Counted from the first letter of the stretch, positions 3,545 to 61,461 are shown. The stretch is 64,000 nucleotides of DNA from an uncultured delta proteobacterium (GCA_963850465.1 CAWKLN010000004.1:39735-103734); one strand, 5' to 3'. Numbers and translations: made by a program. Notes: generated by a model not told the origin, from the letters alone.

Positions 3545-4075
3545 TCACGTGTCGTCCGGGCGGGAGAAGGCGCGGATGGTGCGGATATCCTTCTGTGGAA
3601 TGCCCAGGGATTCCAGGAACGTCTGGTGGTCATCCGGGAAAAGCCGTTCGAATTCGATGTGCCAGTGGAGCATATCCTGATCGGTCATGCCGGCGGCGCG
3701 CAGGAGCGTTGTCCACTTTTCGCGGCTCAGGCTGGACGGCATGTCGCTAAAGGACGGGTTGCCGATCAGGTTGCGGATAACTTGCTGCTGGTTGTGCAGG
3801 GCCTGAATTTGCCGGTCGACCTCCCGCAGGCGTTTTTCCAGAATGGTTTTCAGGCTGTCACCCGGTGAATCAAGGATCTGCTGAATGGCTTTTAGCGACA
3901 GTCCGATGCGTCGATAGTGGCAGATTTCTTCCAGCCGCTGGCGGTCGGCGTCGGTGTAGAGGCGATAGTTGGACGGGCTGCGGCCCGAGGGCCGCAGCAG
4001 TCCGATCCGGTCGTAATACAGCAGGGTGCTGCGGGACAACTTGAACTGTTTAGCCAGCCGACTGATGGTGGTCAC
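3545..4075 (-). CDS. MerR family transcriptional regulator
   Basis: The N-terminal HTH is TISRLAKQFKLSRSTLLYYDRIGLLRPSGRSPSNYRLYTDADRQRLEEI, with a GTG start. Confidence 0.8.
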   Translation of the reverse strand: MTTISRLAKQFKLSRSTLLYYDRIGLLRPSGRSPSNYRLYTDADRQRLEEICHYRRIGLSLKAIQQILDSPGDSLKTILEKRLREVDRQIQALHNQQQVIRNLIGNPSFSDMPSSLSREKWTTLLRAAGMTDQDMLHWHIEFERLFPDDHQTFLESLGIPQKDIRTIRAFSRPDDT

Positions 4076-4132
4076 GGTCGAGCCCTTCTTTGATCCGCCG
4101 ATGGGGCATGCCGATCACATGCGATCGATGGC

Positions 4133-4648
4133 TCATTCTGGCGGCATGTCATGTTGAGCGCCGTGTCCGGCAGCATTCAGCATGGTGCCGGTTTGCAGGT
4201 AGTGATTGAGCATTTCCTCGATGATCCTGATTTCCTGGCTATAGGACGAATCCCCATAGTGATCAATATAGGAATTGCCTTCCGGGCTCAGGGCCGTCAT
4301 GGTCTGGGTCCAGGTGGCAATCGTGCGGTCGGGCCCGTCACCCGCCAGATGGATATCCAGCCGGGTGATGCGCAGGCCGGGTGCCAGACGAATAAATTCG
4401 ATGGCGCGACAGGGTTCATAGCGTGTGACGACCCACCATTCCGGCCCCCGGTCTTCACGGAAATCGGTAAAAAAGATGCCGTTATCTTCGGCATAGCCCG
4501 TATCCGAATAGATCATGCGGCATTGCCAGATCGGTATCCAATCGTATTCCCTTTTCGGACAAAGCAGGGGGAATACCTGCCGGGGGGATGCCGCCAACGT
4601 CATGACACCCGTTTGCACACTGCGTTTCGAATGAAAGTGTTCCATCAA
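4133..4648 (-). CDS. SRPBCC (START/polyketide-cyclase-like) family protein
   Basis: Size and pattern (ASPRQVFPLL...WIPIW...) resemble the SRPBCC fold. It lies co-directionally beside the MerR gene. Confidence 0.45.
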   Translation of the reverse strand: MMEHFHSKRSVQTGVMTLAASPRQVFPLLCPKREYDWIPIWQCRMIYSDTGYAEDNGIFFTDFREDRGPEWWVVTRYEPCRAIEFIRLAPGLRITRLDIHLAGDGPDRTIATWTQTMTALSPEGNSYIDHYGDSSYSQEIRIIEEMLNHYLQTGTMLNAAGHGAQHDMPPE

Positions 4649-4914
4649 TTTCTCCTTTGCTTCGGGGTTAAAACAGATCGATAGGGACTACACTGTGAAC
4701 CCATAGACGGGTCAAGCCCGATTGGCACTGTATGGCATGGCTGGAGCCGCCCTCCGAATTGTGTTAGGATATAGGCGCCTGTGAAACGGGTGGCATGGTT
4801 GGCCGCGCATTGGCGGTGATGCCCGCGGACCAGGACACCGCCGTCCTGCACGGTATTCGCCATTGACGTCGGGGCTTCAGGTTACAAGACAAGTATCACC
4901 AGGAGAAGTGATCC

Positions 4915-8679: not shown

Positions 8680-9064
8680 TCCGCATCCCTGGTTTCTTCG
8701 ATCTTCCACCAGTGATCAAACAGGCATCTCACCGGACAATGGATCTCCTATCAACGTGGTCCACACGAATAAATAGTAGCCGACCTCCCGCCAATATGCG
8801 ATATTCTTATCGACGCCCCCTTGGTCATATTTGACATCTCCAGCCCAGACACATCACGTGGTTGCCGTGGGAGCAACCAACGCAAGTCTTTCCAAATAAT
8901 CCTTAAAATCCAAAGCAACCACTTGCTGTGAGAGATCCATGAACTATACCGCAGTCGGTCGCGTGAACAAACTTCTCAGCATGGCATCAGTCAGGAGGTC
9001 GGCTGAAAAGGAGTTGTGATTGCCGCGATAGAAGGCGTTAGGCTGGTATAAGTTAAGGGCGTCC

Positions 9065-10553
9065 CTATAGTCGGATTTCCCGGTTGAATCGTTCCGGTCC
9101 GATAATGAACTTAACCGTCGCCAGTGACCCGAGAATGGCACCCAGGATGCCGGGCGCCATAACGCTCTGGCCGGCCAGGTAGAGCCCTTTGACCGCGGTG
9201 CGGTTCAGGACCGCGGCGGACAGCAACTGGCGGCTTGAACGCATGACACCGTAAGCCGATCCATTGGGGCTGTTGACCCAATCCCGGATGGATAGCGGCG
9301 TGTAGACATCCAGCAGTTCCATATCATTGAAGGCGCCCGTGATGGGTTCGATCGCACGGATCAGCTTGCGCGCCACGGATTGTTTAAGGCGGTTGTAGTC
9401 CTCGCCGCGCTTTCCGGTTCGGGTGTGCTGCCAGGGCTGCCACAAGGCATCGTGGCCGGAAGTCAGCAGGGAGAGAAGAAGATATCCGGGGCGTTCGCAT
9501 GGCCTTAATTGAAGATAGATGAGATCGTCGACAGCGCCATTTTGTTTGGTCCGGATCGAAAAAATATTGTGGTCGATGGGCTGATGCCCGTTGCGGGGTA
9601 CCAGGGCATTGACCGCGAACATTCCGGCGGTGTCCTTCAGCCCCGTGATGCGGCGCCGGTAGGAGGGTTTGACATCTTCCGGGGCCAGGAGATCCAGCAC
9701 GATTTTGGGATGGATGGCGGCAATGACCCGGGTGGCGGCGATCGGCTCACCATTGTCAAGTATAACGCCCGCTACCTGACCCTGGCGGATATCGATGCGC
9801 CGGGCGGCATGCCCCGTCACAAGTTTTCCGCCCAATGCCGTCAGGCGCTGATGCAGGACGTCCACCATATGGGTGCCGCTGCTTTGCAACCGCCAGGACG
9901 AGAAGAGATAGCTGGCCAGGATCATGGTGTGAAAAAACAAGGGGCACTGGTCCGCCGGCACGCCAATCCATACGGACGGCACGCTGATAACGCTTTTGAG
10001 CCCGGGCGAGCACCCGGCGCGATCTAAAAAGGCCCACAGGGGTTCGGTTTGTTCGATCAGGTTGGCCATGGGCTGCGGTTCATAAAGAAAACCGAGGCGA
10101 TGAAAATCTGCGGCGCTGGCGCGCAACTGTTCCATGAAGGCCTTGATCGGCGCGTTTTCGGCCGGAAAGGCGTCTTTAAGATGGGTTTCATAGGCATCCA
10201 GCCCCACCGGCATGTCAAACTGAGCAGGACCATTGGCCGGGTTTGCAAAATAATAGCGGTCGACCGGTGCGTTGCAACCCATGCGTTCCAGCGGCAGATG
10301 ATCGGTGATGCCAAGGAAATCAAAACAGCGCCGCAGGATTTGCCCCTGATCCAGCGCCCCCAGATAGTGCAGTCCCACGTTGCAGTGCACGCCCTTGCGC
10401 ACAAAGCTTCGCAGCATGCCGCCGGGCTGCGCGTTTCTTTCAATAACGGTGACGTCAAAACCCAGGGTGGCCAGAATGACGGCCGCGCTGAGACCGCCGA
10501 TACCCGATCCGATGACCAGGGCGGTTTCTCTGGGTTTATCAACGCTGCGGCAT
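9065..10553 (-). CDS. CrtI/phytoene-desaturase-like NAD(P)/FAD-dependent oxidoreductase with a frame problem at the 5' end
   Basis: The body is a 450-aa ORF from ATG 10417. The dinucleotide-binding motif (ALVIGSGIGGLSAAVILATLGFDVTVIERN) lies upstream in the same open frame, which has no ATG, GTG or TTG. A Shine-Dalgarno plus ATG at 10553 is off by one frame. Confidence 0.7.
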
Positions 10554-10610
10554 GGAGATTCCTTATTTTTAGCGCGTGGCTGTTTATGACAGGGAAGTAA
10601 ATCGCCGTGT

Positions 10611-11267
10611 CTATTTATCCAGGAAGCCTTTAATCCTGACGGCCACCATTTTTTTCATGGCGCCTGAAAGCGTTTCAGGGTGCTCCAGCAGTAACCGGTA
10701 GTGTCGGCGCGCATCTTCAGGAGATCCGATCCATTCGTAATTTCCCGCCAGGTGCATCCGGGCCACAAAGTGCTGCGGCCTGATCGCAAGGGCGGTTTTT
10801 ATCAGGGGAATGCTGGACTGGGGGTCGCCGTTCTTTTCATGAAAGCGGGCCAGGGACATTAGAAGGGCAAAATGCAGATCCGGGTTTTGGCGGACATCCT
10901 CCTGTTCCAGCAATTGTTCGACATATTCACCGGCCGACGCGCGATAGTGATCCGGTTGCGAAAAAAGCCGGTTGAGTGCATCCGGGCCGAGGGTGTCACT
11001 GACCTGCTGAATAATTTCTTTTTCCAGGCGTTGTTCGTGAAAGGCATATTCCGTCGCACAATCCCGATCGCTGGGGAAGAAATTGGAGCGGATCATGGGG
11101 ATGGCGATGGATATGACGGCCGCCAGCAAAAGCATTCCCAGAGGATGCATCCGGCCGCTGGCCAGAAGGCTGTAGACAAGATAACTGGCTCCCACAAGCG
11201 CTGCCAGAATGGCAAAGGCCATGACGATCAGCTTTTTCAAGCGGCGTTTCTTTTCCTCTTCTACCAT
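10611..11267 (-). CDS. Membrane protein with C-terminal TPR-like repeats
   Basis: It has two N-terminal TM helices and a TPR-like C-terminus (ALAIRPQHFVARMHLAGNYEWIGSPEDARRHYRLLL). Confidence 0.55.
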   Translation of the reverse strand: MVEEEKKRRLKKLIVMAFAILAALVGASYLVYSLLASGRMHPLGMLLLAAVISIAIPMIRSNFFPSDRDCATEYAFHEQRLEKEIIQQVSDTLGPDALNRLFSQPDHYRASAGEYVEQLLEQEDVRQNPDLHFALLMSLARFHEKNGDPQSSIPLIKTALAIRPQHFVARMHLAGNYEWIGSPEDARRHYRLLLEHPETLSGAMKKMVAVRIKGFLDK

Positions 11268-11282
11268 GGCGGATTACGTCCT

Positions 11283-12548
11283 TCAGGATAATGGCGTTAG
11301 GTTCCGCTCGGCCCGGGCGCGCAGGGCAAAGGCGCGGAAACGTTCTCCCTCGGCGGCATTGCCCTGGGAGAAATAGATCTGGCTGATGCGGTCGAAATAG
11401 ACGGCGGCATTGGCCGGGATTTCCCGCGCCAACGACAGATAAAGCTCAAGCACGTCCGATCCTCGATGGCCCCCGGCAAAGGAGAGCTCCGCATACTTGT
11501 GTTTGATCTCGGGATCGACGCGGGTGTGACAGCTGCTGCAACGGCCCATGATTTGCCGGTATTGTTCCCGTGCCTCGGAGCGCTCGTTCAAGGCCTCGTG
11601 GGTTTTCGCGAGTTCCCGTGCCATGCCGTCGTCCCAGCCATAGGCTGCCAGAAAATGACGGTAGAAATCGCGGGCCTGCTCAAAATGACCGGCCCGGTAA
11701 AGGGTTTCACCCCGCAAGTGCATGACCGCCCTGGACTGTGCCAGGTGGGGCGGAAGCGATGCCAGCAGGGCTTCGGCCTGTGCTGTTTCACCTTGCTCCC
11801 AGTAGATGTCGCACAGCAACTGGTAGGCCGGCAGGGCTTCGGGGTGATGCATGCGAACCTGTTCCAGCAGTTCCCGGGCCTCATCCAGCCGGCCGTTGTT
11901 CACATAGGCGGTGGCAAGCTCCAGGGGGATAAAGCTGTCCGGCTGAGGGGTGACGGCCATGGCCCGTTCCAGTTGCGTTATGGCGGTATCGAAATCACCA
12001 TTGTTGAGCGCGATATAGCCGTCGATGAAGTCCTCGCCATAGCCTTGATAGGCTTCCCCCACCTCTTCCGGCAGGGTATGGCACAGGGCCTGGAAATACT
12101 CATCTTTCGATACGGCCGGACCGGATGTCATTTCACTGTCATCCAGGGCAGGCGCTTCAACCGGCATCATCTCGAGTGCCTCATAATCGGCCTCGGGTCG
12201 GGCGTTCAGGGTCGCAAGCTGCTCTGTCAATTCATCCCGGAATCTCGCATCGCTGCTGATTTCCAGGGCCAGGGTCAAGGCCGCGCGCGCTTCATCCGCA
12301 TAGCCGCCGTCGAGATAGTTCAGGGCATCTTCCTGATGACCACGCGCCAGGGCGTCGCATGCTTGCCGGATCTTGTCCTGAAGCTGTCGCTGCCGGCCTG
12401 GCTCCGTTTCCGGCGCTTTTTCAAGTTTGTGGAGGGCGCGTTCATAGGCCTGCTTGGCCTGACCCCACAGGCCGGACGCAAACAGGGTGTCGCCCTTGGT
12501 TTCCAGTTTTTCAGGGGTTGGGCCGGAAAACAGCTTCATCAGGGACAT
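11283..12548 (-). CDS. Tetratricopeptide repeat protein
   Basis: It contains multiple TPR-like A/Y/L-periodic helical pairs and lies 15 nt upstream of the previous gene on the same strand. Confidence 0.65.
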   Translation of the reverse strand: MSLMKLFSGPTPEKLETKGDTLFASGLWGQAKQAYERALHKLEKAPETEPGRQRQLQDKIRQACDALARGHQEDALNYLDGGYADEARAALTLALEISSDARFRDELTEQLATLNARPEADYEALEMMPVEAPALDDSEMTSGPAVSKDEYFQALCHTLPEEVGEAYQGYGEDFIDGYIALNNGDFDTAITQLERAMAVTPQPDSFIPLELATAYVNNGRLDEARELLEQVRMHHPEALPAYQLLCDIYWEQGETAQAEALLASLPPHLAQSRAVMHLRGETLYRAGHFEQARDFYRHFLAAYGWDDGMARELAKTHEALNERSEAREQYRQIMGRCSSCHTRVDPEIKHKYAELSFAGGHRGSDVLELYLSLAREIPANAAVYFDRISQIYFSQGNAAEGERFRAFALRARAERNLTPLS

Positions 12549-23919: not shown

Positions 23920-24020
23920 TATTGTTCTCCTTTCAAGTCATTTTTACTCCCCAATGATGTAAACGCGTTCGCATCACAGGACATTATTAAAAAAAATCAT
24001 TTTTAAACCGGCGTTCAGCA

Positions 24021-24140
24021 CTACAGGTGGGCAACGAGCCACTTGTAAAAATAGGAAAATGTCAGAACGGCAACCAGGCCGCCGCACCACAACACAGCGA
24101 ACCACAACCATTGGCGTTTTTTTTCAGTAAGCGGATTCAT
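24021..24140 (-). CDS. DUF2474-like small membrane protein (39 aa) overlapping the cydB stop
   Basis: MNPLTEKKRQWLWFAVLWCGGLVAVLTFSYFYKWLVAHL is a single TM peptide in the position typical of the small subunit-like ORF after cydB. Confidence 0.5.
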   Translation of the reverse strand: MNPLTEKKRQWLWFAVLWCGGLVAVLTFSYFYKWLVAHL

Positions 24141-25153
24141 GGGAGGCCTTTCCCCGGAAAAGGTAATAGCAATAGGCCGTATAGGTGAGCACGACCGGCA
24201 ACATGATCACCGTACCCACCAACAGCAGAGACTGGGACTCAGGGGCCGCCGCGGCCTGTCTGAACGTCACCTGATGAGGCACCAGCCATGGCCACAGGCT
24301 GATTCCGAGGCCAAGGTAGCCCAATAGAAAAACTCCGATACTCATGAAAAAGGGCCGATACTCGCGTCCGCTGAGTGCAGGTCACGCCAGATCACGATAG
24401 AACAGGACCGCCGTCCGAGGGGAATGGGCAGCAGGTAAAATAAATTGGGCAGGCTGAACCACAGGCATACGCATCGATCCGGATTCATCAGGGGCATACT
24501 GATGCTTACGACGCCGATGAAAGACCCCGACGTAACCCAATACGTAGGACGCACATTTTGCGTGCCCATTGCTGGGTCTCCCCTCGGTTTTCATCACCAG
24601 CCAGGTGCCGCCCAGTAGCGCGTACCCGAATACCAGCGCCATGCCGGTCATGACACTGTAGGCATTGATGCCAGTCGAAAGCGCCGCCGGCAAAGCTGCG
24701 CCCTGTCGACTGGCAACACCCTGGACGACTGCTGCCGATGATGATTCCCTGCATAAACGCTGCCGTCAGCGAGCCGTAATGAAAGGCATAATCCCAGATG
24801 CGTCGAGACTTCCGCTGGCCTTGAAGCGGAATTCAAAGGCCACCCCCCTGAAGACCAGCCCCAGCAGCATGCCGATGACCGGCAGGTAGAGGGCCGGCAT
24901 CAGAATGGCATAGGCCAGAGGAAAGGCGGCAAACAGACCTCCGCCACCCAAAACCAGCCAGGTTTCGTTGCCGTCCCAGAAGGGGGCGATGGAATTCATC
25001 ATGCGATCCCGACAGCGTGTCCGAGGGCGCAAACGGGAAGAGAACGCCCACACCGAGGTCGAACCCGTCCAGAATCACATAGAGCATCACCGCCGTGATG
25101 ATCAGGCCGTACCAGATCAATGGCAGATCCACAAATGCTTCAAAACTAAACAT
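24124..25153 (-). pseudogene. cydB: Cytochrome bd oxidase subunit II, multiply frameshifted
   Basis: Recognisable CydB segments (MFSFEAFVDLPLIWYGLIITAVMLYVILDGFDLGVG; SIAPFWDGNETWLVLGGGGLFAAFP; VMTGMALVFGYALLGGTWLVMKTEG; ...YCYYLFRGKA) are spread over three frames. There are about 8 frame changes and an in-frame TGA at 24382. Confidence 0.8.
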
Positions 25154-26554
25154 ATTGCTCTCCTTTTTCCACCCCCCGGGGAGCGACCAGGGGCGGTTTC
25201 TGCACGCCGTGGGCACCATAGGCTTCTTCCTGGTTTCCAGGGCCTTTGGCGATCAGGCGACTTATATAGTAAACACCCGCGCCAAAGATGACGCCGTAAG
25301 TGATGACAAATGCCGCCAGGGACAGGGCAATGGGCTGTCCACCCACCGGCGAGACGGCCTCGGCCGTGCGCATGACGCCATAAATGATATAGGGCTGCCG
25401 GCCGATCTCCGTCACGAACCAGCCCGCCAGCACGGCGATGAAACCGGAAGGTGTCAGGGCCATGCACCAGTATTGAAACCAGGGGGTGTCGAAGAGCCGT
25501 TTGCGCAGGTGCAGGACCAGGGCCATCACCCCTGTGAGGATCATGAGCATGCCGATACCCACCATAATTCGGAAGGACCAGAAAACCCAGGCCACCGGTG
25601 GTTGATCTTCCCGGGGCCACTCTTTCAACCCTTTGACCTCGCCATCCAACTCGTGGGTAAGAATCAGGCTGGACAGCTTCGGGATTTCGATGGCGTAGCT
25701 GGTTTTTCTGGGCTTTCTGGTCGGGCCAGCCGAAAAGCACCAGCGGGGCGCCCTGCTGCGTTTCCCACAGGCCTTCCATGGCGGCCACTTTGGCCGGCTG
25801 GTGTTTCAAGGTATTGAGGCCGTGCAGATCGCCGAGGAGAAGCTGCAGTCGGGGCGACAAAAATGGCCATGATCATGGCCATGCCCAGCATGATGCGGGC
25901 GTGCTTTACATACTGTCGACGCCACAGGTAGAAAGCGCCGATGCCGCCCACCACAAAGGCGGTGGTGAGGTAAGCCGCCATGATCATGTGGGCGAAGCGG
26001 AACGGGAAGGACGGATTGAAATATCATGTCCAGCCAGTCGGTGGGGTAGAGCAGACCGTCGTCTCCCCATCCGAAAGCCCTGCGGGGTTTGCATCCAACT
26101 GTTGGCGGAAAGGATCCAGAATGCAGACAACAGCGTTCCAAAAGCCACAATCACTGTCGACGCAAAATGCATGCGTGGGCTTACCCGATTCCAGCCGAAA
26201 AGCATCACGCCCAGAAAAGATGCCTCCAAGAAGAAGGCGGTCGAGCACCTCGTAGCCCAGCAGTGGGCCTAGTACGTTCCCGGCTTTGTCTGAGAAGACC
26301 GACCAGTTGGTGCCAAACTGGAAAGACATTACGATGCCGGACACAACGCCCATACCAAAGGCCACCGCAAATATCTTGACCCACATGCGGTAGATTTCGG
26401 CGTAGAGCGTGTTGCCGGTTTTGAGCCAGCGCCATTCTATGACGGCCAGCCAGCTTGCCAGACCGATGGTGAAGGCCGGGAAAATAATGTGAAAAGAGAT
26501 GGTGAAGGCGAACTGAATCCGTGCCAGTAATATTGGATCAAGATTGTCGAACAT
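25146..26554 (-). pseudogene. cydA: Cytochrome bd oxidase subunit I, multiply frameshifted
   Basis: A GAGGTG Shine-Dalgarno precedes ATG 26554. Six collinear CydA segments are joined by frame changes near 26240, 26064, 26018, 25849 and 25700. Confidence 0.85.
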
Positions 26555-26640
26555 GGCGACACCTCGTTTTATTTTGTATGGCTAAAAAAAACGTGCTCGA
26601 GCGACGGTCAACCGGGTTCGGTACGGATCGGTTAACCTCA

Positions 26641-26979
26641 TTAGCGGTAAGCCGACTGTATCCGCATGATGGCTTCTTGCTCCCAGGCGGCGTTTGTCCT
26701 CAGAACATCGCGCATGCCTTCCTGCCAAGGATAGGCCACCCAAAAGCCGGCTCCGGTAAAGTCGAAATACGCCTGCTGAACAACGATTGTCTGACGGCCG
26801 TCCCTTATCAAGCGAATGAATCCCCAATGTTAGCGCTGGCCGGAAGATCTCGGATCGATCAGGCGAAATTGCAGCTGATGGTTGTCCGCGTCAGTCGTCG
26901 TTTTCCGGATGAATCGCTTGCCCGGGGCAGCCGAATAGTCTGTTTCCGTTGATTTGTCCTGGTGCGAGTCTTTGGTTTT
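26641..26979 (-). pseudogene. Gene remnant upstream of cydA (no start codon, in-frame TAA)
   Basis: The frame is open from 26979 with no ATG, GTG or TTG. An in-frame TAA sits at 26830-26832, followed by 62 protein-like codons (HWGFIRLIRDGRQTIVVQQAYFDFTGAGFWVAYPWQEG...). Confidence 0.35.
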
Positions 26980-27025
26980 TTATACCGCCACGTTTGCCAC
27001 CTGCTGTAATGGATTAGGTCGAATA

Positions 27026-27080
27026 AAGCTTGACATAAACTAGACAAATATTTGACACTGTCAAGACGCAGTGCTATTTT
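27026..27080 (+). promoter_or_regulatory. Sigma70-like promoter with CarH-type operator (three 11-bp direct repeats) in front of carH
   Basis: The repeats are aAgcTtgACAt / aAacTagACAa / atatTtgACAc at 27026, 27037 and 27048. The -35 TTGACA (27052-57) is part of the palindrome TTGACAcTGTCAA. After a 17-nt spacer comes the -10 TATTTT (27075-80), with the ATG 6 nt later. Confidence 0.6.
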
Positions 27081-27086
27081 GCAAGC

Positions 27087-28037
27087 ATGAAAACAAAAAA
27101 CTACGAAATAAAATACGTTGCGCAACGCACCGGACTCAGTGTTCACCGGATCAGAGCCTGGGAGCGCCGCTATCAGGCGGTGACCCCGGAAAGAACCGCG
27201 ACAGACCGGCGGCTCTATTCGGAATCGGACATACGCCGCCTGCAGCTTCTTCGTCAGGCAATTGACGTAGGTCACCGCATTTCGAAGATTGGTCGCCTGG
27301 CACTGGACGACCTGATGAAGCTCGTCAATCACAATCCCGCAATCGGTCCGTCTTCGCCGGCAGCGGTCACCATTCCGGGGAAACCCGGGCAGGCGGAACT
27401 GGTCCAGATGGCCTATTGCGCCGTGAAGGCACTGGATGCGGATGCCCTGGAGGCGTTTCTGCTGCGCGCTCAGGTAAGTTTCCCGCGGCGACGCTTCATC
27501 GAGGGGTTGCTTGTGATGTTATTTGATAAGATCGGTAAGGGCTGGGTTCAGGGTACAATTGGAATCGCGCACGAACATATGGCCAGTAACGTTGTAAGGT
27601 CCTTTTTGGGTGCGAATCTGCGGGAAATAGTTCCGACACCGGGCGCCGCCGGCATTGTGGTGGCGACTCTCAGCGGGCAGCGTCATGAATTGGGTGCCAT
27701 GTCCGCGGCGTTAGCGGCGGCTGATGCCGGCTGGCAGCCACTGTATCTCGGGCCGGATCTCCCGGCCGAAGCGATTGCGGCGGCCGTCGAGCAAACCGGT
27801 GCGAAGGTGGCCGCGATCAGTATAGCCTTTACGGTCAGCAGCCAGCAGTTGATCCGGGAAACGCGAAAACTTGGTCAGCTATTGAAGGAAAGGGCCGCCA
27901 TTATTGCCGGTGGCCGGGCGAACGCAGACGTTCGGGCCGCTTTGGCTGACATGGGCATACGCTGGTGTGGCACGCTGGAGGCCCTGCATTTTGCTTTACT
28001 TGACGAGAACCTGGTTCGGCGGGAATTGATAACATGA
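27087..28037 (+). CDS. carH: CarH/LitR-type MerR-family regulator with an AdoB12-binding photoreceptor module
   Basis: It has a MerR HTH (YEIKYVAQRTGLSVHRIRAWERRYQAV), the helical-bundle signature W-x9-E-H (GWVQGTIGIAHEH) and a Rossmann B12 domain with the ExHxxG-type loop (SGQRHELGAM...GWQPLYLGPDLP). Confidence 0.8.
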   Translation: MKTKNYEIKYVAQRTGLSVHRIRAWERRYQAVTPERTATDRRLYSESDIRRLQLLRQAIDVGHRISKIGRLALDDLMKLVNHNPAIGPSSPAAVTIPGKPGQAELVQMAYCAVKALDADALEAFLLRAQVSFPRRRFIEGLLVMLFDKIGKGWVQGTIGIAHEHMASNVVRSFLGANLREIVPTPGAAGIVVATLSGQRHELGAMSAALAAADAGWQPLYLGPDLPAEAIAAAVEQTGAKVAAISIAFTVSSQQLIRETRKLGQLLKERAAIIAGGRANADVRAALADMGIRWCGTLEALHFALLDENLVRRELIT

Positions 28038-29035
28038 TGCCGGGCCTGGACAGGCGTGCGTCCGGCGCTTTGTGGGGCCTGTTTATCGGTGACGCACTGA
28101 GCATGCCGGTGCATTGGTACTACGATCGTGAAGCCCTGGTGCGCGACTACGGGGCGATTACCGATTATCTGGCTCCCCATAACCCCCATCCGGACAGTAT
28201 CCTCTGGCGATCCCGCTTTACTTCACCGGGACCGAGGTACGACATCTTGCACGATCAACGCCCATACTGGGGTCGTAGAAACGTTCACTACCACCAGTTC
28301 CTGGCGGCAGGCGAAAATACCCTCAATCTCCAATGCGTGCGTCTGCTGATCGATTCCCTAATGGCGAATGGCGGTTATGATGCGGATGACTACCTGCGTC
28401 GCTACATCGCTTTCATGCGCACCCCGGGAAGTCATCGTGATACTTACGTGGAAGAGTATCACAGACACTATTTTACGCGTTTGGCAGGCGGCCTGTCCCC
28501 CAGACGCTGCGGCATTCCGGAAAAGCATATCGGCGGGCTGGTGGGTGTCGTACCCATTGTGGCTTTCTACCGCGAGAAATCTTCCGAGGCATTGGCATGC
28601 GCCCAGGAACACCTGGCCTTGACCCATCGGGGAGAGCGCATGTCATCGGCCGCGGCCTTGATCATCGATGTTCTGTTGAAGGTTATCTCCGGAGCCCCGC
28701 TGCGCCGTGTCCTGGAAGATGGCATGGCCACCCAGCGCAGCCCATATTTCGGCCACCCTTTCCGGCAGTGGCGAAACACCCCCGATAATGTTGTGGTGGG
28801 TCGCTACCTGAGTCCTGCCTGTTATGTGGAAGACGCCCTGCCGGCCGTCATCTACCTGGCATGGAAATATGCGCATGACCCAGAGCAGGGATTGATCGTC
28901 AACGCTCATTTAGGGGGAGACAACGCGCACCGGGGTGCCATCCTGGGCGCCCTCTTTGGCGCGGCAGGCGGCCGGGATGCGTTTCCGGACCGATGGGTGA
29001 GCGGACTGTACGAAACGGTGCCAAATCTGTTATAA
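28034..29035 (+). CDS. ADP-ribosylglycohydrolase family protein
   Basis: Its ATG overlaps the carH stop (ATGA). ALWGLFIGDALSMPVHWYY... and the C-terminal GGDNAHRGAILGALFGAAGG match the ARH/DraG metal-binding motifs. Confidence 0.78.
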   Translation: MMPGLDRRASGALWGLFIGDALSMPVHWYYDREALVRDYGAITDYLAPHNPHPDSILWRSRFTSPGPRYDILHDQRPYWGRRNVHYHQFLAAGENTLNLQCVRLLIDSLMANGGYDADDYLRRYIAFMRTPGSHRDTYVEEYHRHYFTRLAGGLSPRRCGIPEKHIGGLVGVVPIVAFYREKSSEALACAQEHLALTHRGERMSSAAALIIDVLLKVISGAPLRRVLEDGMATQRSPYFGHPFRQWRNTPDNVVVGRYLSPACYVEDALPAVIYLAWKYAHDPEQGLIVNAHLGGDNAHRGAILGALFGAAGGRDAFPDRWVSGLYETVPNLL

Positions 29036-29086
29036 TCGATAACATCAGGGTTCTTTTTAAATGCAACTTGAGACTCAGGAGGTGCA

Positions 29087-29308
29087 ATGGGAAACGAACC
29101 GGTTATCACTTTTCGTTCCTACCCGTTCAAAGTTGGGCAGAAGATCTATATCGAAGACGGTCCCCGGCATGGTGACTGGGAAGTTATTGCCGTCAGCGAA
29201 CGCAAGGTCAAACTGCGCTGTCCCTTTTCCAAACGCGAATTCGAGTGGAATCGTTTCTGCTATTTTGCCGAAGCGCGCGAGGACGGCCCCTGGCCCCATC
29301 CCGAATAG
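29087..29308 (+). CDS. Small conserved-looking hypothetical protein (73 aa)
   Basis: AGGAGG lies 5 nt before ATG 29087. The composition is protein-like. Confidence 0.55.
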   Translation: MGNEPVITFRSYPFKVGQKIYIEDGPRHGDWEVIAVSERKVKLRCPFSKREFEWNRFCYFAEAREDGPWPHPE

Positions 29309-29326
29309 AACCTAACGTTGGAGCGA

Positions 29327-29560
29327 ATGATGAAACAATGGCGCAAAAAGATGGGCGCGTTGGTTGTGATGGCGATGTTGTCGACCACCCTGCTGATGTC
29401 GGGCTGCGAAAACACCGAAACCCGCAACCAGGTGGATGATACCGTGGAAGAACTGGCCGGGAAGAAAAAAGTGGATCAAATGAAAGCGATGAAAGAAGAC
29501 CTTGAAAACATCCAGACCCAGCAGGCCGACCGCATAAAACAACTCGACAATGCCAACTGA
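29327..29560 (+). CDS. Small lipoprotein
   Basis: It has a signal peptide with lipobox LLMSGC, followed by a coiled-coil-like charged segment. Confidence 0.55.
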   Translation: MMKQWRKKMGALVVMAMLSTTLLMSGCENTETRNQVDDTVEELAGKKKVDQMKAMKEDLENIQTQQADRIKQLDNAN

Positions 29561-29743
29561 GGGGCATGCAATTTTTTCTGCGCCGTCCGGTACTTTGGGC
29601 ATCGCAGGAAAACAGCGTGCTGGCGGCCACCGGCCAAAAAATGGAACGGTCCTTTGGTCCAATATCGGGATGGCATTTCGCGTCGGTACGGTTGCAAGCG
29701 GGGTGGTTGCCTTTAGGGCAGGGGGGGGCGTTAGACTGAATAT

Positions 29744-30541
29744 ATGGTGTTTCACGACGCAAAATGGATGAGGGCTGAACGCCTCCTGAGGCTTGGTTGT
29801 CTCGGCCTTCTCCTATTCCTCCTGGCGGGTTGCCGCTCGCAGCTCGTTTTGCCGACCGACGCTTCGGCACCCCCTATTGATCGGGCCACCGTGGAATCCC
29901 CGCTGCCCGTCATCGCGTTCACGATCCAGGTCGGTGCCTTTTCCACCACCGAGCGGGCGGCCAATTATGCCGATAAACTGGCGTCCTACGGGCTCGACAC
30001 GTATTACTTTATCGACACGGACGGCCTCTGCAAGGTGCGTTTTGAGCGATTCGAGACCAAAGCGGCGGCACGCCGGCGGGCCGTTGAACTGCAGGTGCGC
30101 GGTGTCATCGACGACTTCTATATCGCACGCCCCGGTCCCTCCGGCCGGCAACCCAATGCCCGGGAAGATCTCCAGGAGGGTCTCGTGCAGACCGCACGGC
30201 GTTTTATCGGCACACCCTATCGCTGGGGCGGCGAATCGGCCCGCACCGGTTTCGACTGCAGCGGCCTGACCATGACCGTCTATCGTCTCAACGCTCTGGA
30301 ACTGCCGCGCAATTCCCGCGCGCAATTCCAGACCGGCCGCCCGGTGCCGCAGGATGCCCTCCAGAAGGGGGATCTTGTCTTTTTTGCCACCGGCAGGCGT
30401 GGGCGCGTGTCCCATGTGGGCATATACAGCGGCCAGGGACAGTTCATTCACGCCCCCGGCCGGGGCAAAACCATCCATACGGCGTCTTTGTCAAACGGGT
30501 ATTTCAAAGGGCGTTATGTCGGCGCCCGACGCTATCTGTGA
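29744..30541 (+). CDS. NlpC/P60 (C40) peptidoglycan endopeptidase lipoprotein with SPOR domain
   Basis: The lipobox is LLAGC. The SPOR-like segment is FTIQVGAFSTTERAANYADKL.... The C40 core is GTPYRWGGESARTGFDCSGL...SHVGIYSGQGQFIHAP. Confidence 0.85.
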   Translation: MVFHDAKWMRAERLLRLGCLGLLLFLLAGCRSQLVLPTDASAPPIDRATVESPLPVIAFTIQVGAFSTTERAANYADKLASYGLDTYYFIDTDGLCKVRFERFETKAAARRRAVELQVRGVIDDFYIARPGPSGRQPNAREDLQEGLVQTARRFIGTPYRWGGESARTGFDCSGLTMTVYRLNALELPRNSRAQFQTGRPVPQDALQKGDLVFFATGRRGRVSHVGIYSGQGQFIHAPGRGKTIHTASLSNGYFKGRYVGARRYL

Positions 30542-30763
30542 CGGCGGCCGGCCCGCGGAATACCGCCCCAGGCCATTGACGTGGCCGGTGACCCTGCACC
30601 CGCTGGGGGAAGTTCGGCACCCGACACCATGAATTTCAGCTGGCGACCTTAAGCCAATCGGTGTATAATGCAGGCCAATTACGCGGTTTTTTTAACGAAT
30701 CGCGATTCATTGTTACCGCGTCTTTCTTTGTTGCGACGCCTTCTGATCCGAAAGGAACCACCG

Positions 30764-31189
30764 ATGCTGATTCCCCTTCCGGAATTGAATCTCATGCCCA
30801 AATCCTTACGCGTGGCCGTACTATTGACCTTTGCCGGCTGGTGCTGTTTTCTTTTTGCGACCTACGCCTACTATGACCCCGATTCTTTCTTCAAGTTTAC
30901 CATCGCCGGGGGAATTGTCTGTTATTACCTGTACAAGGGCAAACGCTGGGCACGCGTTATGGCCATGCTTTCCAGCGTTTTTATTGTGCTTTACGGCGGT
31001 TTTTTTGCATTTCTTTTGGCCGCTCACAATTCCACCGCCATGGTGGTTTCCGCTGCCAATGTGGTTCTTTTTGCGGCTTCTTTCTACTATCTTGCCATTC
31101 CGGAAACGGGGCGTTTTTTCAAAAAAGATGCGCCCGCGGATGAATCGGATGGTGCGGATACCCAAAGCCCTTCGAAAAAAGACGACTGA
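30764..31189 (+). CDS. Hypothetical membrane protein
   Basis: AAGGA precedes ATG 30764, and there are four predicted TM helices. Confidence 0.5.
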   Translation: MLIPLPELNLMPKSLRVAVLLTFAGWCCFLFATYAYYDPDSFFKFTIAGGIVCYYLYKGKRWARVMAMLSSVFIVLYGGFFAFLLAAHNSTAMVVSAANVVLFAASFYYLAIPETGRFFKKDAPADESDGADTQSPSKKDD

Positions 31190-60165: not shown

Positions 60166-60898
60166 TCAGGTCTTAAAGGGACCGGGTTGTTTTGTCAAGG
60201 TGCCTGCCAACGCCTGCGTTAGATAGAATATCTCTGAATAGACACGCGAAGATGAGAAGCGATCGTCGACGATATCGATGACCTCGGCGATCATCTCGCG
60301 TCGCCCGGCCAGATAGAAATCATATTCGCCCGCGGGCCATTGTTGTCGCAAATACATGGTGACACGGCCCGGGAAGGCCTCGGATGGCAGGGACGGCATT
60401 GCGCCCGTTAGGCAGGGAATGTAGCGTGCGGCGGCGGGTTCCATAAGATCCCGATAATAGAGCGCGCCAACATCCTGCACCCCGTGGAGCAGAACAAACC
60501 CTTGCACGCCTTCCCGGCACATGGCGGCGAAGGGCGCAATCCCGGTGCCTGTGGCGATAAATATCGCCGGCCGCGAGGAGGGGCGATAGATAAAATGACC
60601 GCTGGGTCCTGAGAAATTCAGAGAAGTTCGCCAATGGGCAGCGGCTTAGATGGGTGGAAACGACACCGCTGTCCATCCAACGAATCAGCAGGATCAGTTC
60701 AGCAGGGGTATCACCGGGGATCAGTGAATAATCGCGATGTTTTCCACCGATGAGGAGTCGAATGCGCTGGCCGGCCTGGAATTGAAAATCCGGCGGACGT
60801 TCCAACGCCAGCGTGAACGTATCCTTCGTGAGCCACTGACGGTGGATGATGCGGCTGGTGTGAAGGTTGCCGCCGGCGGCCACATCCGGGGACGTCAT
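60166..60898 (-). pseudogene. FNR-like FAD/NAD(P)-binding reductase, frameshifted
   Basis: The FAD half (QRIRLLIGGKHRDYSLIP) is in one frame and the NAD half (FSGPSGHFIY...IFIATGTGIAPF) in another. The junction coincides with an imperfect 10-nt tandem duplication at 60609-60628. Confidence 0.7.
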
Positions 60899-61461
60899 GC
60901 ACTCTCCCAGGGGGTATCGGGCGTCTGGGTGACCTGATTGCAGTAACGTGCCAGCACGAAAAGGTAGTCTGACAGGCGGTTCAGATACGTCAACGTGCCG
61001 GCGTACATGTCTTCTTTGGAGGACGACTGCCGAACGGTCCGGACGGTATGGCGCTCCGCCCGCCGGCAGACGCAGCGGGCCACGTGGCTCCAGCAGGCGG
61101 CCGGATGGCCGCCGGGGAGAATAAACTGGCTCAGGCGTGGTAGATCTTCATCCATTTGATCGATAGCCTTCTCCAGAAAAAGGGCCTTTTCAGCGGGCAG
61201 ATCCCGGGTGTCCGCAAAGGTCGGGTCTTCCCCGGAAGTGGCCAGGCAGGCCCCGACCCGGAACAGATCCCCCTGGATCTGAAGGAGTTCGCGGATTCTG
61301 TCGCGGCAGTCGCCAGGCATGGCGGCAATGATCGCCCCCACAAGGGAGTTCAGTTCATCCACATCTCCGTAGGCCTCCACCCGCACATCATCTTTGGCGA
61401 TGCGCTCGCCGCTGAACAGGCTGGTTCGTCCGCGATCGCCGCCGCCGGTGTAGACTTTCAT
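60895..61461 (-). CDS. PduO-type ATP:cob(I)alamin adenosyltransferase
   Basis: MKVYTGGGDRGRTSLFSGERIAKDDVRVEAYGDVDELNS is the canonical N-terminus. The stop overlaps the start of the FNR-like gene (ATGA). Confidence 0.88.
   Translation of the reverse strand: MKVYTGGGDRGRTSLFSGERIAKDDVRVEAYGDVDELNSLVGAIIAAMPGDCRDRIRELLQIQGDLFRVGACLATSGEDPTFADTRDLPAEKALFLEKAIDQMDEDLPRLSQFILPGGHPAACWSHVARCVCRRAERHTVRTVRQSSSKEDMYAGTLTYLNRLSDYLFVLARYCNQVTQTPDTPWESA

Follow-up and report, generated by a model that had tools for sequence, protein, structure and literature searches.

Organisation of the carH locus

The sequence analysed here, hereafter the window, is a 64,000 nucleotide (64-kb) stretch from an uncultured delta proteobacterium (GCA_963850465.1 CAWKLN010000004.1:39735-103734), and carries a gene of the CarH/LitR family of MerR-type regulators with a B12 domain, carH/litR (positions 27087-28037, + strand). 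The gene is preceded by three direct repeats and a promoter, and is joined at its 3' end to a gene coding for a 333 amino acid (aa) protein with an ADP-ribosylglycohydrolase (ARH) fold (PF03747; 28034-29035, + strand), which belongs to a non-canonical subfamily. Remnants of the cytochrome bd oxidase genes cydA and cydB lie divergently upstream. Protein families, motifs, operator, promoter geometry, gene coupling, the ARH active site and gene neighbourhoods were established from the sequence and by comparison with homologous loci (labelled L001, L003 and so on), which were retrieved by protein identity or similarity. On this basis, a class-I CarH/LitR photoreceptor-repressor probably autoregulates a short leaderless operon with a non-canonical ARH-fold protein as its stress output, and gates cydAB in those relatives where these genes are intact.

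The regulator is a class-I member of the LitR/CarH family

The 316 aa product of carH comprises a MerR-type domain, a four-helix bundle with W153, E163 and H164, and a Rossmann B12 domain with H200, with Pfam domains delimited as MerR_1 (residues 6-71; E=1.2e-14), B12-binding_2 (110-175) and B12-binding (190-291). The recognition-helix motif RxWERRY is present as RIRAWERRY, the W-x9-E-H motif is read within GWVQGTIGIAHEH (W153-VQGTIGIAH-E163-H164), and H200 sits inside GQRHELG. RxWERRY, an intact W-x9-E-H and an axial-His B12 motif are the features which define CarH and separate it from the B12-independent CarA, with W-x9-E-H contacting the adenosyl (Ado) group and being crucial specifically for photoreceptor function (PMC9304148). 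The best matches among solved structures are those of Thermus thermophilus CarH/LitR (TtCarH; 5c8d/3whp, E=1.5e-23, phmmer). Because these motifs of the two proteins align residue for residue ('gkgWvqgtigiahEH' against 'geaWhrgeigvaeEH' and 'GqrHelG' against 'GerHeiG'), W-x9-E-H and the lower-axial His are positionally equivalent to those of TtCarH, and the CarH-type architecture proposed in an earlier, sequence-only reading of the region is borne out in domain order, motif register and best sequence and fold matches. An alignment of 35 homologues (38-85 % identity) showed R23, W25, E26, R28, Y29, W153, E163, H200, G215 and G275-G276 to be invariant, with H164 kept in at least 90 % of them. 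The AlphaFold2 model of the protein (predicted local distance difference test, pLDDT, 83.7) retrieved full-length TtCarH chains as its top twelve Foldseek matches in the Protein Data Bank (PDB), and its cobalamin-binding module compares with that of TtCarH at a template modelling (TM) score of 0.77-0.79 and a root mean square deviation (rmsd) of 3.1-3.5 Å. With the class definitions of the family taken from PMC9758184, the 316 aa protein is, by sequence, predicted fold and motif register, a class-I (adenosyl-B12, AdoB12-type) LitR/CarH family member.

The regulator is thus of the ordinary CarH type, and its operator design is already known, as are LitR/CarH regulons without carotenoid genes (PMC9758184). 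Together with the frequent occurrence of carH homologues in metagenome-assembled genomes (MAGs) of Desulfobacterales, this makes the association of a CarH with an ARH gene in such a lineage less unexpected than the sequence-only reading had held. Some of the homologues are already labelled 'light-induced transcriptional regulator' by the JGI pipeline. Two positions before H200, a Gln (Q198, codon 27678-27680) is shared by at least 90 % of the members of a large CarH subfamily with representatives in Desulfobacterota, Methylococcales, Ignavibacteria and other groups.

A three-repeat operator overlaps the carH promoter

Upstream of carH three direct repeats, DR1 (27026-27036, aagcTtgACAt), DR2 (27037-27047, aaacTagACAa) and DR3 (27048-27058, atatTtgACAc; all + strand), follow one another with a spacing of exactly 11 bp, with the -35 hexamer TTGACA (27052-27057) contained in DR3. 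An in-register pseudo-repeat, dr4 (27059-27069, + strand, tgtcAagACGc), comes next, and its first six nucleotides finish a palindrome, TTGACAcTGTCAA, which spans 27052-27064 and overlaps the -35. Published CarH operators consist of 11-bp units, 5'-nnnnTnnACAn-3', repeated directly in tandem, of which there are three, one holding the -35, in the TtCarH operator, and four, or three and a pseudo-repeat, in that of Bacillus megaterium CarH (PMC9304148). By their exact fit to the published repeat, DR1-DR3 are a predicted CarH-type operator.

The motif TnnACA-N5-TnnACA-N5-TnnACA has a single exact match in the window, where 0.17 would be expected in shuffled sequence even with one mismatch, and the version of the repeat which includes the A is present with one mismatch (0.04 expected at two mismatches or fewer). 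All three repeats are kept in L001 (78 % identity), L003 (83 %), L006 (51 %), L008 and L010 (both 55 %) and L088 (48 %), and two and a half are retained in L009 (49 %). In the orthologues with repeats, TTGACAnTGTCAAG and the spacer of 17 bp are likewise retained, as is a -10 that follows TAnnnT (or CAnnnT, in L006 and L088). The position of dr4, assessed with a position matrix, reads AAGACA in L003, L008 and L088 and AAGACG in the window (27063-68). The repeats, their overlap with the -35 and the palindrome are therefore as the sequence-only reading described them, and their conservation in orthologous loci could be added. It is very unlikely that the repeats are chance TTGACA-like duplications, with the regulator binding elsewhere or binding the palindrome TTGACAnTGTCAA as a MerR dimer. 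The region is indeed A/T-rich, classical MerR proteins bind palindromes, and clade members and their relatives retain this one; however, the orthologues keep the exact phasing of 11 bp, the T and the ACA while the unspecified positions vary, the repeat is one that has been defined experimentally for CarH, and 14/86 carH-family loci (10 distinct) have an exact three-repeat match upstream of the gene against a background of 1.2e-6 per nucleotide, or ~0.0003 per 220-nucleotide upstream region. The half-sites of the palindrome, at 7 bp centre to centre, would furthermore be too close for a typical MerR dimer.

With DR1-DR3 taken as the operator, the palindrome may serve as a divergent promoter's -35, bind the fourth DNA-binding domain, or belong to dr4. 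At the -35, the palindrome TTGACAnTGTCAA(G) is retained far beyond the clade, being found also in L017, L020, L068 and L088. A second operator layout is seen upstream of carH in Ignavibacteria, Calditrichota, Latescibacterota and others (L014, L018, L024, L041, L050, L052, L069, L073, L083 and L087), where the -35 TTGACA forms the first repeat and TAGACA follows 11 bp downstream, whereas in the Desulfobacterales it closes a series of three upstream repeats. A 157 aa minus-strand open reading frame (ORF) across the promoter (26859-27332) was judged spurious, as it is antisense to carH and shows no coding conservation in the orthologous region.

Promoter geometry points to a leaderless carH transcript

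The -35 is followed after 17 bp by an extended -10, TGc TATTTT (27072-27080, + strand), which scored 10/12 with the TG in a promoter scan and recurs with the same geometry in the orthologues. Six nucleotides (gcaagc) without a Shine-Dalgarno (SD) sequence separate the -10 from the carH start codon (27087-27089, + strand), which is also the predicted transcription start site of a leaderless mRNA, so that operator, promoter and start codon together occupy 62 bp. No start codon lies between this ATG and the in-frame stop before it, so the start cannot be located farther upstream. The gap of six nucleotides recurs in L001, L003, L008, L009, L010, L012, L015, L017, L020, L068, L088 and L151, with five or seven nucleotides in L006, L011 and L115, and the six bases themselves are unrelated between loci while the length of the gap is kept. 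A leaderless geometry, defined as a -35 with at least 5/6 matches, a spacer of 16-18 bp and an nAnnnT ending 4-9 nucleotides before a candidate start, could be distinguished in 35/84 distinct carH-family loci (mode six nucleotides, 17 loci), compared to 0.67 % of all ATGs in the same DNA. These loci belong to Desulfobacterales, Ignavibacteria, Calditrichota, Latescibacterota, Gemmatimonadota, Acidobacteriota and others. The -10 placed six nucleotides before an SD-less ATG by the sequence-only reading is confirmed for the window.

Within the same operon, all seven loci in which carH and the ARH gene are joined have a purine-rich SD-like run at the ARH gene and a perfect AGGAGG at the following 73 aa ORF. 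As the lineage does use SD sequences, the absence of one at carH is meaningful. The conserved promoter-to-start geometry thus points to a leaderless carH mRNA, and several phyla seem to share this design of a leaderless, self-repressed carH promoter, of which no description was found in the literature searched.

The probable carH-ARH operon is restricted to one Desulfobacterales clade

The start codon of the ARH gene lies inside the carH stop codon (ATGA), as was noted in the sequence-only reading, and this overlap is found in seven clade loci: the window, L003, L006, L008, L010, L088 and L097. The probable third gene of the operon is a conserved 73 aa ORF (29087-29308, + strand; MGNEPVITFRSYPFKVGQKIYIEDGPRHGDWEVIAVSERKVKLRCPF...) with an SD sequence, AGGAGG, at 29077-29082. 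This ORF accompanies the ARH gene in every clade locus at 79-90 % identity and with its SD conserved, and has no match to any Pfam, NCBIfam or PADLOC family. It was not seen beside ARH genes outside the clade. The feature at 29318-29577 (+ strand), an 80 aa ORF with a lipoprotein-like N-terminus and then a terminator-like hairpin, the next on the + strand (29550-29567), with a T-run (together 29550-29577), may close the operon. At the corresponding place L003, L006 and L088 have predicted ORFs of 76-77 aa, a comparison by position and size only. Between carH and the 73 aa ORF the scan detected no internal promoter and no strong terminator. It can be expected that carH, the ARH gene and the 73 aa ORF, possibly with the 80 aa ORF, are co-transcribed.

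A survey of the neighbourhoods of 87 carH loci showed that the coupling holds within one Desulfobacterales clade and not beyond it, with ARH directly downstream of carH only where the CarH protein is at least 51 % identical to that of the window. The nearest named relatives of the clade are Desulfobacteraceae/Desulfobacterales MAGs. In L001 and L002, carH (78 % identical in L001), the operator and cydAB are kept and the 73 aa ORF is absent, with the ARH gene cut to its first 38 codons and fused to unrelated sequence (L001 6948-7274, and L002). Conversely, carH of L097 (1363-1660) has decayed to a 79 aa remnant, from which the B12 domain is deleted and in which the recognition helix is mutated to RISAWDCRDR, while the three-repeat operator, the promoter, the ATGA junction, the ARH gene and the 73 aa ORF are intact. 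The loss of carH with retention of promoter and ARH gene implies constitutive expression in L097. The carH-ARH pairing is clade-restricted and evolutionarily separable, L001 having lost ARH and L097 having lost carH.

The ARH-fold protein has an altered active site

The 333 aa protein matches PF03747 over the full profile (positions 1-287 of 287; E=3.3e-50), and its model (pLDDT 92.5) compares with MJ1187, DraG, Tri1 and ARH3 at TM scores of 0.61-0.70. The active site was compared with those of the solved enzymes MJ1187, Lmo0067, 2cwc and DraG. 'GDALampvH' of the window protein stands opposite 'GDALGMPTE' (MJ1187), 'GDCLGVPVE' (Lmo0067) and 'GDALGATVE' (DraG), so that the catalytic/metal Glu which ends GDALGxxxE, and which is E41 in human ARH3, is replaced by His27, without exception in 35 subfamily members. 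GGDNAH, or GGDNAx across the subfamily, stands opposite GGDTDS, GGDTDT and GGDADT, with the second Asp and the Thr lost, and the canonical GNGxLMR loop reads HIGGLVG. The GDAL and GGD cores are shared with the canonical ARHs, and D296 and N297 are invariant in the subfamily. A candidate counterpart of (S/T)DD, G93-E94-N95-T96 at the start of helix 97-112, was identified by its position in the model and is unaligned; an N-terminal-only profile aligned just the first 47 residues, to MJ1187, and the central TDD stretch matched no solved ARH. By this position, G-E-N is the probable counterpart of TDD. The subfamily is large, with more than 3900 homologues at E<=1e-10 and ~60 % identity even outside the clade, and contains dozens of invariant His, Tyr and Glu residues, in HWYYD, HYHQFL, GENTLN, HRDTYVEEYHR and EKHIGGL among others.

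The sequence-only reading had predicted that the controlled output is the reversal of ADP-ribosylation, and a CarH which makes this reversal light-dependent, with the ARH as a true hydrolase acting on a target modified by some ADP-ribosyltransferase, would be in keeping with the full-profile PF03747 match, the ARH fold of the model and the tight coupling to carH in seven loci. The prediction is not upheld by the active site, given the substitutions in GDALGxxxE, GGDxDT and GNGxLMR, nor by the equivalog scores, which at 42.7 bits for DraG (TIGR02662; cut-off 337) and 24.6 bits for Tri1 (NF041672; cut-off 490) fall far below the cut-offs. Furthermore, no ADP-ribosyltransferase occurs among the assigned neighbours (cydAB, NlpC/P60 and penicillin amidase), the rest of the 64-kb window not having been scanned for transferases, the two small ORFs are without a family match, and the usual neighbours of the subfamily are stress genes of lipid and tetrapyrrole type rather than ADP-ribosyltransferase toxins. 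Light-dependent de-ADP-ribosylation is considered unlikely, and the ARH-fold protein, as judged from its residues, is most likely no protein de-ADP-ribosylase. The label 'ADP-ribosylglycohydrolase' would then probably be misleading for a family of thousands. A defence or toxin-immunity function for the ARH gene and the small ORFs was also considered and rejected, since PADLOC gave no match to them and the weak 'mad1' match of CarH reflects helix-turn-helix similarity. Recognition of this ARH-fold subfamily as non-canonical and linked to light stress was not found in the literature searched.

Genomic company of the ARH subfamily

Outside the clade, members of the subfamily occur in recurrent gene neighbourhoods. 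The cluster of L091/L144 contains a photolyase-related protein, DUF4174, DUF2177, ARH, DUF1499, an amine oxidase, DUF1365, two cyclopropane fatty acid (CFA) synthase-like genes and DUF1295; that of L093/L145 is similar, and in L090/L099 a SOUL gene is directly upstream of ARH. An unbiased Pfam census of 150 ORFs flanking non-clade ARH loci was headed by flavin amine oxidase (16) and DUF1499 (11), then SOUL, DUF4174 and DUF1295, and the amine oxidase (AmOx)-DUF1365-CMAS cluster lies within 10 kb in 5/10 of the ARH loci which have 10 kb on both sides. The SAK1-dependent singlet-oxygen genes of Chlamydomonas include CFA1/2, SOUL1/2, DUF1365, DUF2177 and an 'ADP-ribosylglycohydrolase' (PMC4067076), and LitR-family regulons of Pseudomonas include photolyase and the furan-fatty-acid synthase UfaM (PMC9758184). 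By this company, the ARH-fold protein is probably a light/oxygen (photooxidative) stress enzyme.

A second recurrent partnership is formed by a flavin amine-oxidase-family protein of ~416 aa and an ORF of ~135 aa without family, which are convergent to ARH and lie downstream of it in L110, L128, L137, L141, L153, L158, L161, L162 and L164. The ~416 aa protein is weakly HpnE/CrtI/PPOX-like, below all NCBIfam cut-offs, and the partnership is distinct from the AmOx-DUF1365-CMAS cluster.

Genes resembling carH are found near ARH in three other lineages, L151 (complete, 530 bp upstream), L115 and L011. The gene between the two codes for a sensor PP2C phosphatase in L011 (FIST-PAS-SpoIIE, 9033-11552; carH and ARH 4.8 kb apart) and in L115 (PAS-SpoIIE, 3661-4908; 3.5 kb apart). 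The ARH subfamily was considered as a general CarH target; non-clade ARH genes have no CarH operator directly upstream, and ARH is therefore not such a target. The ARH-fold enzyme might also serve the photoreceptor itself, for example by hydrolysing 4',5'-anhydroadenosine, which is released on CarH photolysis (PMC9304148), or some other adenosyl- or cobamide-derived nucleoside. The ARH fold is a ribosyl-glycohydrolase scaffold and the gene is translationally coupled to carH. However, the subfamily has thousands of members, only 2/77 non-clade ARH loci have a carH-like gene nearby, L097 retains ARH after the decay of carH, and nothing in the data speaks specifically for such a service, which renders it extremely unlikely.

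Divergent cytochrome bd genes

A conserved partner overlooked in the sequence-only reading is the cytochrome bd oxidase encoded divergently from carH. In the window, cydA-cydB are remnants (24124-26554, - strand), frameshifted such that tblastn pieces in three frames place cydA in three and cydB in two reading frames. Compared with the intact genes of L003 they contain 18 small indels, of which 15 are insertions of 1-2 nucleotides, none in a homopolymer; identity to L003 is 88.8 % with no excess of substitutions, and the carB, carH, ARH and amidase genes of the window are intact. The window cydAB is either a pseudogene or a locally error-rich part of the assembly. Intact cydAB are divergent from carH in L001, L003, L006, L008, L009, L010 and L088, which is every clade locus with upstream sequence. 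The start codons of cydA and carH are 110-130 bp apart in L006, L008 and L010, and ~530 bp apart in the window. A minus-strand segment of the window spacer (26644-26949) corresponds, at 87 % identity and with one internal stop, to the C-terminal half of a 206 aa ORF which is intact in L003, and the N-terminal ~360 bp of that ORF are replaced by 83 bp (26950-27032). The replaced sequence and the differing lengths mark the cydA-carH spacer as a variable region.

On its opposite strand the palindrome provides a perfect TTGACA, followed after 16 bp by TAGTTT, TAATTT, TAATAT or TAGCTT. Were this the cydA promoter, DR1-DR3 would, as a hypothesis, cover its spacer, -10 and start site. Separate support for control of cydA is offered by the unrelated locus L136 (7907-7961, - strand), where an exact operator, TCGACA-N5-TGAACA-N5-TTGACA, precedes cydA on its own strand, with 16 nucleotides to TACTCT, and DR3 is the -35 of the cydA promoter; ~1.3 exact motifs would be expected in the 1.1 Mb scanned. 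As there is no carH within 10 kb of this operator, the locus suggests that a CarH controls cytochrome bd in trans in L136. The literature searched held nothing relevant on a link of CarH/LitR to ADP-ribosylglycohydrolase, leaderless mRNA, Desulfo- taxa or cytochrome bd, and an association of CarH with cytochrome bd in Desulfobacterales was not found in it.

The nature of these partners also bears on the signal perceived. A protein which senses the availability of adenosylcobalamin (AdoCbl) rather than light, repressing when adenosyl-cobamide is ample and derepressing under B12 limitation, could make do with the same B12 module, as CarH DNA binding is AdoCbl-dependent (PMC9304148), and would suit a presumably anaerobic, sediment-dwelling lineage and the finding that 24000-31000 contains no Rfam element, cobalamin riboswitches included. 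Nevertheless, W-x9-E-H, which according to the literature is crucial for photoreceptor function, is intact and conserved, the divergent partner is an oxygen-reducing oxidase, and the partners and ARH neighbours are of light- and oxygen-stress types rather than B12 uptake genes or B12-dependent enzymes. We regard cobamide sensing as quite unlikely, and retain light as the favoured signal. The PduO-type cobalamin adenosyltransferase gene which the sequence-only reading pointed out as a source of the chromophore is real (60895-61461, - strand; PF01923, E=1.2e-55), but is 33.8 kb from carH, not 32 kb, and shows no sign of linkage. By its family assignment, it would show only that the genome has the capacity to adenosylate cobamides.

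Proposed mechanism

The mechanism that we infer for light-controlled autorepression extends to cobamide binding, the light response, the transcription start site, the regulon and the role of the enzyme, and follows from homology to T. thermophilus and B. megaterium CarH. In the dark, adenosyl-cobamide would be bound base-off/His-on via H200, W153, E163 and H164 would pack on the adenosyl group, and the protein would oligomerise, probably to a tetramer. This oligomer, seated on DR1-DR3 and dr4, would mask the -35 element, which is part of a strong sigma-70-type promoter, so that transcription is blocked. In the light, the Co-C bond would break, the oligomer would dissociate and RNA polymerase would start at or beside the A of the ATG, yielding a leaderless transcript of carH, ARH and the 73 aa ORF, possibly with the 80 aa ORF. 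The ARH-fold gene would be translated by coupling, through the ATGA overlap and the internal purine-rich SD, and the 73 aa ORF from its own AGGAGG. Where relatives have cydAB intact, this operator region probably controls the divergent genes as well, and light would derepress them. With cydAB disrupted in the window, the carH-ARH arm alone would remain there.

Several observations weigh against this reading. The NCBIfam equivalog for CarH, NF052513, scores 117.6 bits against a cut-off of 400; NF052513 is still the top NCBIfam family for the protein (E=5.9e-34, residues 5-278), which is consequently placed at family and class level and not as an equivalog of a characterised CarH. Of the classic motif D/ExHx2G-x41-SxT/V-x22-27-GG, H200, G203, S245 (41 after G203) and G275-G276 are present and conserved, but Gln198 replaces the Asp/Glu, giving QxHxxG (QRHELG), and the SxT/V position reads S-I-A. 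There is also no His after the Trp, the residue which forms the bis-His light-state adduct in TtCarH. Gln198 may tune His-Co ligation, and given both differences the photochemistry or cofactor preference of the protein may depart from that of TtCarH. As regards the transcript, L003 has GTG, a poorer leaderless codon, at the equivalent start, and there may be an additional promoter farther upstream. As regards cytochrome bd, the divergent cydA promoter was detected by a consensus scanner only in L010, not in L008 or L006, and the cydA of L127 is without a CarH operator. The photooxidative-stress role, finally, draws on gene neighbourhoods and one algal transcriptome, with the algal ARH likened to the subfamily at the level of family only.

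Comparison with known systems

The nearest characterised system is T. thermophilus CarH (LitR; 5C8D/5C8E/5C8F), the best sequence and fold match, which shares the three domains, W-x9-E-H and the axial His in register, and an operator of three tandem 11-bp nnnnTnnACAn repeats, one of which holds the -35. R199 and D224 of the window protein align with the TtCarH dimer salt bridge, and G215 with an interface Gly. The window protein differs in being ~27-30 % identical, in having Gln for Glu in ExHxxG and in lacking an obvious bis-His partner, and the locus differs in its non-carotenogenic outputs, the extra downstream pseudo-repeat and the conserved palindrome. B. megaterium CarH/LitR is an AdoCbl-dependent tetramer on four direct repeats, or on three and a pseudo-repeat, which the array of DR1-DR3 and dr4 resembles (PMC9304148). 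Its targets are carotenoid genes and its oligomeric transitions have been established by experiment.

The class II LitR proteins of Pseudomonas putida/mendocina likewise repress non-carotenoid light-stress genes, including photolyase, UfaM, FolE and unknowns (PMC9758184), and this regulon shares its functional theme with the neighbourhoods of the ARH subfamily. Unlike the window protein, they are without the Rossmann B12 domain and have a LOV partner instead of AdoCbl, and no ARH gene appears in the regulon in the portion of the source drawn upon (PMC9758184). DraG, ARH1/ARH3, Tri1 and MJ1187 share the all-helical PF03747 fold and the GDAL and GGD cores with the ARH-fold protein, and are set apart from it by 16-22 % identity, by its His27 and GGDNAH, by the absence of a partner transferase and by other genomic company. 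The singlet-oxygen regulons, those of Chlamydomonas SAK1 (PMC4067076) and the bacterial sigmaE-ChrR system, resemble the bacterial ARH neighbourhoods in their CFA-synthase-like, DUF1365, DUF2177, SOUL, amine oxidase and ADP-ribosylglycohydrolase genes, but are controlled by SAK1 or by extracytoplasmic function (ECF) sigma and anti-sigma factors, not by CarH.

Implications

In a mat or shallow sediment, light announces oxygen and photosensitised damage to a sulfate reducer, and this would account for the genes that the operon carries. A wider picture can be drawn tentatively and, taken as a whole, is doubtful: in Desulfobacterales at illuminated oxic-anoxic interfaces, a leaderless CarH would read light as a warning of oxygen and singlet oxygen, and a bidirectional operator would derepress both cytochrome bd and a re-tooled, His-site ARH-fold enzyme, the latter belonging to a widespread photooxidative-damage family of many bacteria, and possibly algae, whose substrate would not be ADP-ribosylated protein. 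The compact 62-bp arrangement of operator, promoter and start is convenient for electrophoretic mobility shift assays (EMSA) or optogenetic constructs. The altered ARH site and the recurrent furan- and cyclopropane-fatty-acid, SOUL and photolyase-related neighbours provide a testable lead to the function of the ARH subfamily. For the organisms themselves, a Desulfobacterales CarH apparently wired to cytochrome bd, and not to pigments, suggests that 'strict anaerobes' of mats and sediments may sense light to anticipate oxygen.

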